DNA of 64,000 nt, taken from NCBI RefSeq assembly GCF_013122565.1, contig NZ_CP053258.1; one strand, given 5' to 3'. The DNA comes from Escherichia coli (GTDB taxonomy: Bacteria > Pseudomonadota > Gammaproteobacteria > Enterobacterales > Enterobacteriaceae). The position numbers and the translations under genes are program-made. Position 1 is the first letter of the stretch. Every line of letters starts with the position of its first letter. Shown piece after piece: positions 60,350-61,270 of this stretch. The notes under the pieces are model-generated. The model saw only the letters and a list, made by a program, of their open reading frames with translations, did no database searches and was not told the DNA's origin.

Positions 60350-61270
60350 TTAGTACTCAAGCCATAAATCGTGCTCACGGTCAGGCAAGGGCTGCTCTAA
60401 TGCCTGTATTTGCTCTGCCGAAAGTCCGGTAATCTTTTGTATCCATTCAGGATCTACACCATTCTGCAAAAATAATCGAAGAATGCGCTGTTCCCCTTTT
60501 ATACATCCATCATTATGAATTCGCTCTGCAATCGTCATTATTCGCTCCCTGTGTTGTGGCATTCGACGGGTTAGTTCGCTGATAAACTTCTTAAAACGCG
60601 CTTCATCGCCAGTCAGTAAAATGTAATTTAACAGCGCAGTTATCTGGCTGTCATTAGCACACTCTGTAACCAGTAATACTACCAGTTGATCAATAAGCTC
60701 CATCAGATCGCGCTGGCTAATATGCTTTTGGATCAACTCCAACAGGGCGACTCTGCGATGCTGCACAATCTCGTCGTCTGGCACGACAGTGACATCCACC
60801 AGCGGGAACGCTGCAGTATAAAGTTTCCGTGCAGTAGTCGGGTCGGCAAATTCGTCCAGCCAGCACAGGGACCAGGGGTAAGGACTACGGCTACCGTGAT
60901 AAAACAGCATCGGGATGACCAGCGGTAGCTGCCGGCGTTTATCATGCTCGATATGGCGCTGCATCACTGCCATGGAATATCGCATCAGGCGAAAGGCCAT
61001 ATGAATGTCCTCGCGGCTCTGATGTTCAATCACCACATAAATATAACCATCGCCTTCGCGGGTCTTTACCGACCACAGAATATCGGAATGTAGCGCCCGC
61101 AATTTTTCATCGACAAAGCTGGCGGATTCCAGTTTTAAGCTGTCGAGATCGCACAGTTCACGTAAATCTTTAGGTAAGTGGATCTCCATAAAATCCCGCG
61201 CGGTATCCGGATGCGTGAGAAAAGATTTAAACAATGCGTCATGCGGCGTGCTGGTTGTGAAGTTTGTCAT
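60350..61270 (-). CDS. rpnD: Rpn-family recombination-promoting nuclease (PD-(D/E)xK, transposase_31), intact 306 aa
   Basis: [33 protein letters not shown]...YVVIEHQS; Rpn-family hallmarks; position of yjiP/yjiQ. Confidence 0.85.

Follow-up and report, generated by a model that had tools for sequence, protein, structure and literature searches.

An uninterrupted rpnD gene with a predicted nested rpnD-S at the edge of the immigration control region in Escherichia coli

Results

Gene content of the rpnD locus

We analyzed a 64,000-nt stretch of Escherichia coli DNA (hereafter, the window; contig NZ_CP053258.1), toward one end of which lies a single minus-strand ORF (60350..61270) that begins with ATG, encodes 306 amino acids, ends with TAA and contains no internal stop in the ORF listing. 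The gene, its conserved domain and its neighbors are as follows:

60350..61270, minus strand: rpnD (yjiP), full-length coding sequence of RpnD-L (ORF listing; PF04754; TIGR01784; alignment to b4584)
60641..61249, minus strand: Transposase_31 / YhgA-like domain with PD-(D/E)XK core (Pfam profile positions 1-202 of 203)
58355..58534, minus strand: yjiS, neighbor
58696..60108, plus strand: yjiR (GntR/PLP-dependent regulator), convergent neighbor between rpnD and the island (ORF; K-12 synteny)
61728..62969, plus strand: mdtM, divergent neighbor (ORF; K-12 synteny)

A preliminary description of this DNA had reported an uninterrupted 306-aa ORF of the Rpn family, and the ORF listing and two profile searches bear this out. 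PF04754 (Transposase_31, YhgA-like) matched residues 8-210 with an E-value of 2.2e-86 (289 bits vs. a cutoff of 21), and the NCBIfam Rpn subfamily TIGR01784 matched with an E-value of 3.6e-48 (164.8 bits vs. a cutoff of 52.1). Given these scores, the ORF is far beyond what chance would produce. Membership in the Rpn/YhgA-like nucleases calls for a full-length Transposase_31 domain above the curated cutoff, and RpnD carries one. Its score against the NCBIfam RpnA equivalog model was 385 bits, below the cutoff of 583. The segment from 58347 to 64000 (5.7 kb; yjiS, yjiR, rpnD, mdtM, and yjiN) is colinear with K-12 MG1655 at 95.3% identity. By its position in the mdtM-yjiR interval, at the immigration control region (ICR) boundary nearest yjiN, and by its high identity to K-12, the ORF is the rpnD orthologue. 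An identical protein is already present in NCBI as WP_171459880.1/QJU25688.1 from E. coli.

Other searches of the locus returned little. Full-length RpnD had no match among PDB sequences at E<=0.01. A PADLOC scan of the protein matched no family, and PADLOC-DB v2.0.0 holds no Rpn model of any kind; defense-system finders such as PADLOC v2 miss rpnD, and automated annotation of defense islands would omit the gene. An Rfam scan of the whole window gave no match inside or adjoining rpnD. Elsewhere, the same scan identified naRNA4 (REP/BIME-derived) on both strands at two sites, together with one tRNA (19483..19706, 27376..27458, and 27598..27681). A REP-like palindrome (GCCGGATGCGGCG / CGCCTTATCCGGC) was seen at 60226..60255, within the 241 bp that separate yjiR from the convergent rpnD. 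On the other side of rpnD, an 11-codon ORF with a GTG start (MLMTICNRYTF) at 61540..61588 on the plus strand is the counterpart of K-12 ytiE. About 140 nt upstream of mdtM, it overlaps a terminator-like hairpin (61570..61588) with a T-rich run behind it, and the two elements might form a leader-peptide attenuator for mdtM.

The lesion in K-12 rpnD

In K-12 MG1655 (NC_000913.3), rpnD is pseudogene b4584, which spans 4568998..4569918. Both it and the window gene measure 921 nt, and pairwise DNA alignment of the two is gap-free. Identity to K-12-derived genomes is 94.4% over nucleotides 1-911 of the gene. Translation and pairwise alignment place the lesion at nucleotide 310, where the C of the window (CAG, Gln, codon 104) is a T in K-12 (TAG), the only in-frame stop of the K-12 gene:

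60959..60961, minus strand: codon 104, CAG (Gln) here and TAG in K-12 (b4584 translation; pairwise DNA alignment)

The earlier description had the K-12 locus split into yjiP and yjiQ by a frameshift. The disruption is real, but its nature is different: an alignment aimed at locating the frameshift found no gap and, in its place, a single C-to-T change. A frameshift in K-12 rpnD is ruled out by the gap-free alignment and the TAG at codon 104. The frame is undisturbed in the window, and the K-12 gene is not intact. RefSeq labels rpnD of K-12 derivatives "internal stop." The K-12 locus tags run from b4337 (mdtM) to b4340 (yjiR) and skip b4338 and b4339, which fits the merger of two former ORFs, yjiP and yjiQ.

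With TAG at codon 104, the long nuclease cannot be made in K-12 without suppression. Laboratory strains carrying glnV44/supE44 insert Gln at UAG. Since the amber codon replaces CAG and supE44 inserts Gln, K-12 derivatives of this genotype would restore full-length RpnD-L, identical to the wild type, to the extent that suppression is efficient (codon 104 corresponds to position 9308 of locus L001).

Distribution of rpnD alleles in E. coli

Of 5426 complete RefSeq E. coli genomes, 4242 contained rpnD DNA, nearly always once (median, one copy) and at a single fixed syntenic locus. The closest allele among complete genomes shared 96.9% DNA identity with that of the window, and the 90%-identity cluster of RpnD held 2569 members. 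An exact match to the K-12 80-mer that includes the TAG occurred in 339 of the 5426 genomes, the names listed being mainly K-12 laboratory derivatives; matches with one mismatch included B strains and wild isolates. In a non-random sample of 14 RefSeq loci, 10 were annotated as intact, with products of 306, 314, or 318 aa. The remaining four were each disrupted differently, by the K-12 amber codon, a frameshift in 13P477T, a frameshift in O157:H7, and an IS1-associated truncation in AR_0369.

In O157:H7 str. F8092B the frameshift is a 25-nt tandem duplication in which ATGACGATTGCAGAGCGAATTCATA occurs twice (1133..1182 of locus L007). The duplication starts at the internal start ATG and breaks both the long form and the RpnD-S frame. 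An 80-mer junction query for it was uninformative among genomes, as non-duplicated alleles match in two joined pieces. Our survey agrees with the report that most E. coli have a complete yjiP and that the K-12 stop is a point mutation (Kingston et al., 2015). In E. coli, rpnD is commonly intact, and its being so is no special feature of this strain.

Nuclease domain and the R185S substitution

RpnD is 57% identical to K-12 RpnA over 293 aa. Two features of the domain bear on activity:

61019..61084, minus strand: catalytic core from D63 to E82-H-Q84 (HSDILW ... VVIEHQS) (residue check; RpnA alignment)
60716..60718, minus strand: codon 185, AGC (Ser), private R185S substitution in the motif QKHIRQRDLM (paralogue and allele alignments)

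A residue check on the RpnA alignment found D11, D63, E82, Q84, R94, and the PDDE motif (164-167) all kept in RpnD, and the core from D63 to E82-H-Q84 is invariant in all five K-12 paralogues. In RpnA, the D11A, D63A, E82A, and Q84K mutants lose all three in vivo phenotypes, R94A loses stimulation of recombination, and D165A, within the PDDE motif, is hyperactive (Kingston et al., 2017). When the K-12 RpnD was repaired and overexpressed, it was toxic and induced the SOS response (Kingston et al., 2015; Kingston et al., 2017), and RpnD was more lethal than RpnA and a weaker stimulator of recombination (Kingston et al.).

Over the first 244 codons, dN/dS was about 0.03-0.24; the last 46 codons gave mostly 0.3-0.8, in keeping with a conserved nuclease whose tail is diversifying. 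The nuclease domain is under purifying selection in comparisons that include the window allele. One position departs from this conservation. Residue 185, Ser in the window, is Arg in K-12 RpnA, RpnB, RpnC, and RpnE; of the 14 other RpnD-cluster proteins in the alignment, 13 have Arg and one has Cys. Because R185S changes a residue conserved in all K-12 paralogues, the substitution might attenuate or alter the nuclease, and the word "intact" as applied to this rpnD should not be read as "active."

Internal start and predicted RpnD-S

Genes of the rpn family are genes-within-genes, in which an internal promoter and start give RpnS, the C-terminal domain alone; on binding to full-length RpnL, RpnS prevents it from cleaving DNA and from being toxic (Zhong et al., 2023). 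Internal transcription start sites have been reported for all rpn genes, and RpnS was detected by tagging for all five genes of K-12 (Zhong et al., 2023). The corresponding elements of the window gene are:

60545..60550, minus strand: Shine-Dalgarno sequence AGGGAG (read from sequence)
60350..60538, minus strand: RpnD-S, predicted intragenic antitoxin of 62 aa from M245, in the frame of RpnD-L (M244 homology; 7TH0 alignment)
60494..60505, minus strand: variable four-residue repeat slot, CIKG, one unit (allele comparison)
60625..60654, minus strand: sigma-70-like internal promoter candidate (ATGACA, 18-nt spacer, TG-TAAATT) (consensus scan)

The in-frame ATG at 60538..60536 (M245) lies 6 nt past the AGGGAG and aligns with RpnA M244, an experimentally validated internal start. 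M245 is invariant in the five K-12 paralogues and in all 15 RpnD alleles examined, and the AGGGAG is found in six of eight compared alleles; O157:H7 has AGAGAG, and 13P477T shows an AAGGGAG context. These features point to internal initiation, served by its own ribosome-binding site, in front of the stretch of rpnD that encodes the C-terminal domain. The promoter candidate, which precedes the internal start by about 85 nt, is identical in K-12; such sites are no commoner in the gene than in shuffled sequence.

When the 62-aa tail alone was searched with phmmer, RpnD-S residues 1-48 aligned to residues 1-48 of 7TH0_A, the RpnA-S crystal chain (E=8e-4). An AlphaFold model of RpnD-S (pLDDT 68) has helices at residues 3-9, 15-25, 30-37, and 41-48, and its top Foldseek match was again 7TH0, a weak one (E=0.58, probability 0.80). 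The RpnD tail is homologous to the three-helix dimerization domain of RpnA-S, a relationship that the sequence alignment shows and the structural check weakly supports. A weak precomputed match of the tail to PF27070 (HTH_Rpn_C), a newer Pfam family, was also seen.

Within this tail, strains differ by four-residue repeats in the first helix, which both forms share; the repeats determine which L and S recognize each other, and the variation lies 8-20 residues past the internal Met (Zhong et al., 2023). In RpnD, the slot follows MTIAERI(H/Y)NDG, and the units begin at RpnD-S residue 12. We found one unit in the window (CIKG) and in K-12 (YIKG), three units in WLLG-MEKG-KEEG alleles (+24 nt, +8 residues), and four in WLLG-RERG-RKEG-KVEG alleles (+36 nt, +12 residues). 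This variation of one, three, or four units sits exactly where Zhong et al. place the four-residue repeats.

The neighboring island

Homology to K-12 begins at 58347; to the left of this boundary, other genes replace the yjiT-mcrBC-symER-hsd genes of K-12:

about 46581..47184: brnA and brnT, toxin-antitoxin
47312..48046: Fic-like gene, 244 aa (weak PADLOC PDC-S24 match)
48090..50189: GmrSD type IV enzyme, with a C-terminal DUF5655 domain
50465..57500: type I hsdM/S/R system
57566..58279, plus strand: AT-rich, membrane-protein-like ORF, 237 aa, directly after hsdR at the yjiS edge

The ICR has been defined as yjiA to yjiN, with rpn, brnAT, and symER as its toxin-antitoxin components (2025 review), and this island is the ICR. 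Two of its genes have features of their own. The HsdM of the type I system is unusually long (784 aa), and the 237-aa ORF had no Pfam or PADLOC match; in OkiPb01695 it is annotated as a "hypothetical protein" (WP_000916452.1). Farther left, at 42172..43162, tsr is followed almost directly by btsT, where OkiPb01695 has the ~11-kb hpa (4-hydroxyphenylacetate) operon; the hpa operon is a presence/absence polymorphism.

A similar island (46581..57500) is present in 114 complete genomes, the best matches having about 96-97% identity. The yjiS-yjiN flank (58300..64000) shares no more than 96.4% identity with any of the 5426 complete E. coli genomes, and the opgB-lgo segment about 20 kb away (34322..40401) is 99.1% identical to its best matches. 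Given this identity on the left flank and a protein that is annotated as E. coli, the low identity on the rpnD side is local rather than a species difference, and a local hyper-divergence adjoins the ICR. We looked for a recombination breakpoint near rpnD, and the identity profile against OkiPb01695 varied from 93 to 99% and showed no sharp edge. The surroundings of hsd have long been known to be highly polymorphic, which is explained by selection for variation together with homologous recombination (2025 review).

Discussion

Taken together, we consider it probable, at roughly 0.8, that the window carries an ordinary intact rpnD that encodes the RpnD-L nuclease and a nested RpnD-S, and that this gene-within-a-gene constitutes a toxin-antitoxin module in the ICR. 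RpnD-L would act as a PD-(D/E)XK DNA endonuclease and, if left unchecked, would be toxic. The internal Shine-Dalgarno sequence and the ATG at codon 245 would give the 62-aa RpnD-S, which consists of the C-terminal helical dimerization domain alone. By analogy with RpnA, RpnB, RpnC, and RpnP2, RpnD-S would bind RpnD-L through the shared helix and block DNA cleavage. Variation in the four-residue units of this helix presumably sets S-L pairing, with the window allele, like that of K-12, representing the shortest form. The most likely role of such a pair would be antiphage defense as part of the yjiA-yjiN ICR, and RecA-independent recombination would probably arise secondarily from the DNA damage that surplus long form causes. 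That RpnD-S is made, that it neutralizes RpnD-L, and that the pair defends against phage are expectations drawn from the literature on its paralogues. Antitoxin function and phage defense were demonstrated for RpnA, RpnB, RpnC, and the plasmid-encoded RpnP2, not RpnD (Zhong et al., 2023); a phage phenotype of chromosomal RpnD has not been reported in the literature, and phage protection itself has been demonstrated only for RpnP2.

The alternative that survives best starts from the private substitution. Under it, the reading frame stays open while R185S impairs the nuclease or sets the gene on course to a pseudogene, and RpnD-S would persist as an orphan antitoxin-like protein. The conservation of R185 among paralogues and alleles speaks for such an outcome, as does the hyperactivity of RpnA D165A, by which a part of the domain outside the PD-(D/E)XK residues matters (Kingston et al., 2017). 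Recurrent inactivation is also documented within the species, the K-12 amber codon, the O157:H7 duplication, the 13P477T frameshift, and the AR_0369 truncation having arisen independently. Against these points stand the tested catalytic residues, all of which are intact in the window protein, and the purifying selection on the nuclease domain. We regard an impaired nuclease as unlikely.

A second alternative concerns the island. The preliminary description placed rpnD next to a variable defense island, correctly, as some 2 kb separate the gene from the boundary at 58347, and proposed that an active RpnD may be relevant to how the island is rearranged. In its full form, intact RpnD at native levels would be the agent of cassette exchange, the breaks that it makes favoring replacement of the ICR without RecA. 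The proposal has a published counterpart. Because yjiP lies beside the ICR, Kingston et al. selected it, repaired the K-12 stop in a synthesized gene (yjiPc) and overexpressed it, and the complete YjiP raised RecA-independent recombination encompassing the ICR about 4.7-fold. The mosaic character of the region, with a right flank far less similar to other genomes than the opgB-lgo segment, could also be accommodated. The proposal finds partial support. However, deletion of rpnA-D left both the basal frequency and the distribution of recombinants unchanged, albeit in K-12, where rpnD already carries the amber codon; replacements were large and not island-specific; and purified RpnA had little or no sequence specificity (Kingston et al.). 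These authors concluded that rpnD does not belong to a site-specific mechanism of the island. Later work recast Rpn proteins as toxin-antitoxin antiphage systems in which the long form is normally checked by the short form. S forms are generally more abundant than L forms and inhibit them, and RpnD-L is absent from the long forms detected in K-12, where the stop is present (Zhong et al., 2023). The gene is moreover disrupted in K-12, O157:H7, and other lineages, and hsd-region polymorphism has the standing explanation given above. We regard rearrangement by native RpnD as slightly less probable still than an impaired nuclease. The idea is already published and largely superseded, and nothing in the window adds to it.

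A more speculative version, to which we attach very little weight, is that native RpnD aids RecA-independent replacement of yjiA-yjiN cassettes or, alternatively, that R185S marks a natural variant of altered activity. If true, a role for native RpnD would help explain the 3-4% divergence of the island and the rpnD flank from all 5426 genomes.

The reading of rpnD as a transposase or mobile-element remnant, prompted by the family name Transposase_31, by labels such as "putative transposase" and "ISNCY family transposase," and by the patchy distribution and horizontal transfer of rpn genes (Zhong et al., 2023), was rejected and has next to no probability, since the ISNCY model NF007418 scored 383 bits against its 583-bit cutoff, the gene keeps to a single locus and its median copy number is one, no convincing terminal inverted repeats or target duplications flank it, the best flanking pair being complementary at 16 of 21 positions (about 1.8 such pairs are expected by chance in 1.7 kb), and the rpn family has no inverted repeats, target-site duplications, or known autonomous PD-(D/E)XK transposase (Zhong et al., 2023).

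For the annotation of this and similar genomes, we suggest that the gene be named rpnD with a nested rpnD-S ORF, and not transposase. The finding has little significance beyond correct annotation; the intact rpnD, the K-12 point mutation, the link to recombination, and the toxin-antitoxin reinterpretation have all been published before.

Comparison with known systems

Among the systems to which the window gene can be compared, RpnA (YhgA) of K-12 is the characterized example. All residues defined in it by mutation are conserved in RpnD, the internal start falls at the homologous Met, and the tail aligns to RpnA-S (PDB 7TH0). RpnA differs in being a paralogue at another locus, and the RpnD tail runs 13 residues beyond the RpnA C-terminus. 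RpnP2-LS belongs to the same Rpn family and shares the gene-within-a-gene toxin-antitoxin architecture; unlike the chromosomal RpnD, it is plasmid-borne, and protection against T-even phages was demonstrated for it (Zhong et al., 2023). The rpnD of K-12 occupies the same mdtM-yjiR locus, has the same length and a one-unit repeat, and possesses the internal Shine-Dalgarno sequence and ATG, whereas the window allele has CAG rather than TAG at codon 104, the private R185S, other residue changes, and a difference in the last ~10 residues of the tail. Other natural alleles, such as WP_000181176.1, WP_000181173.1, and WP_001593925.1, encode intact proteins of 306, 314, and 318 aa at the same locus and differ in the number of four-residue units (one, three, or four) and in their tail residues.
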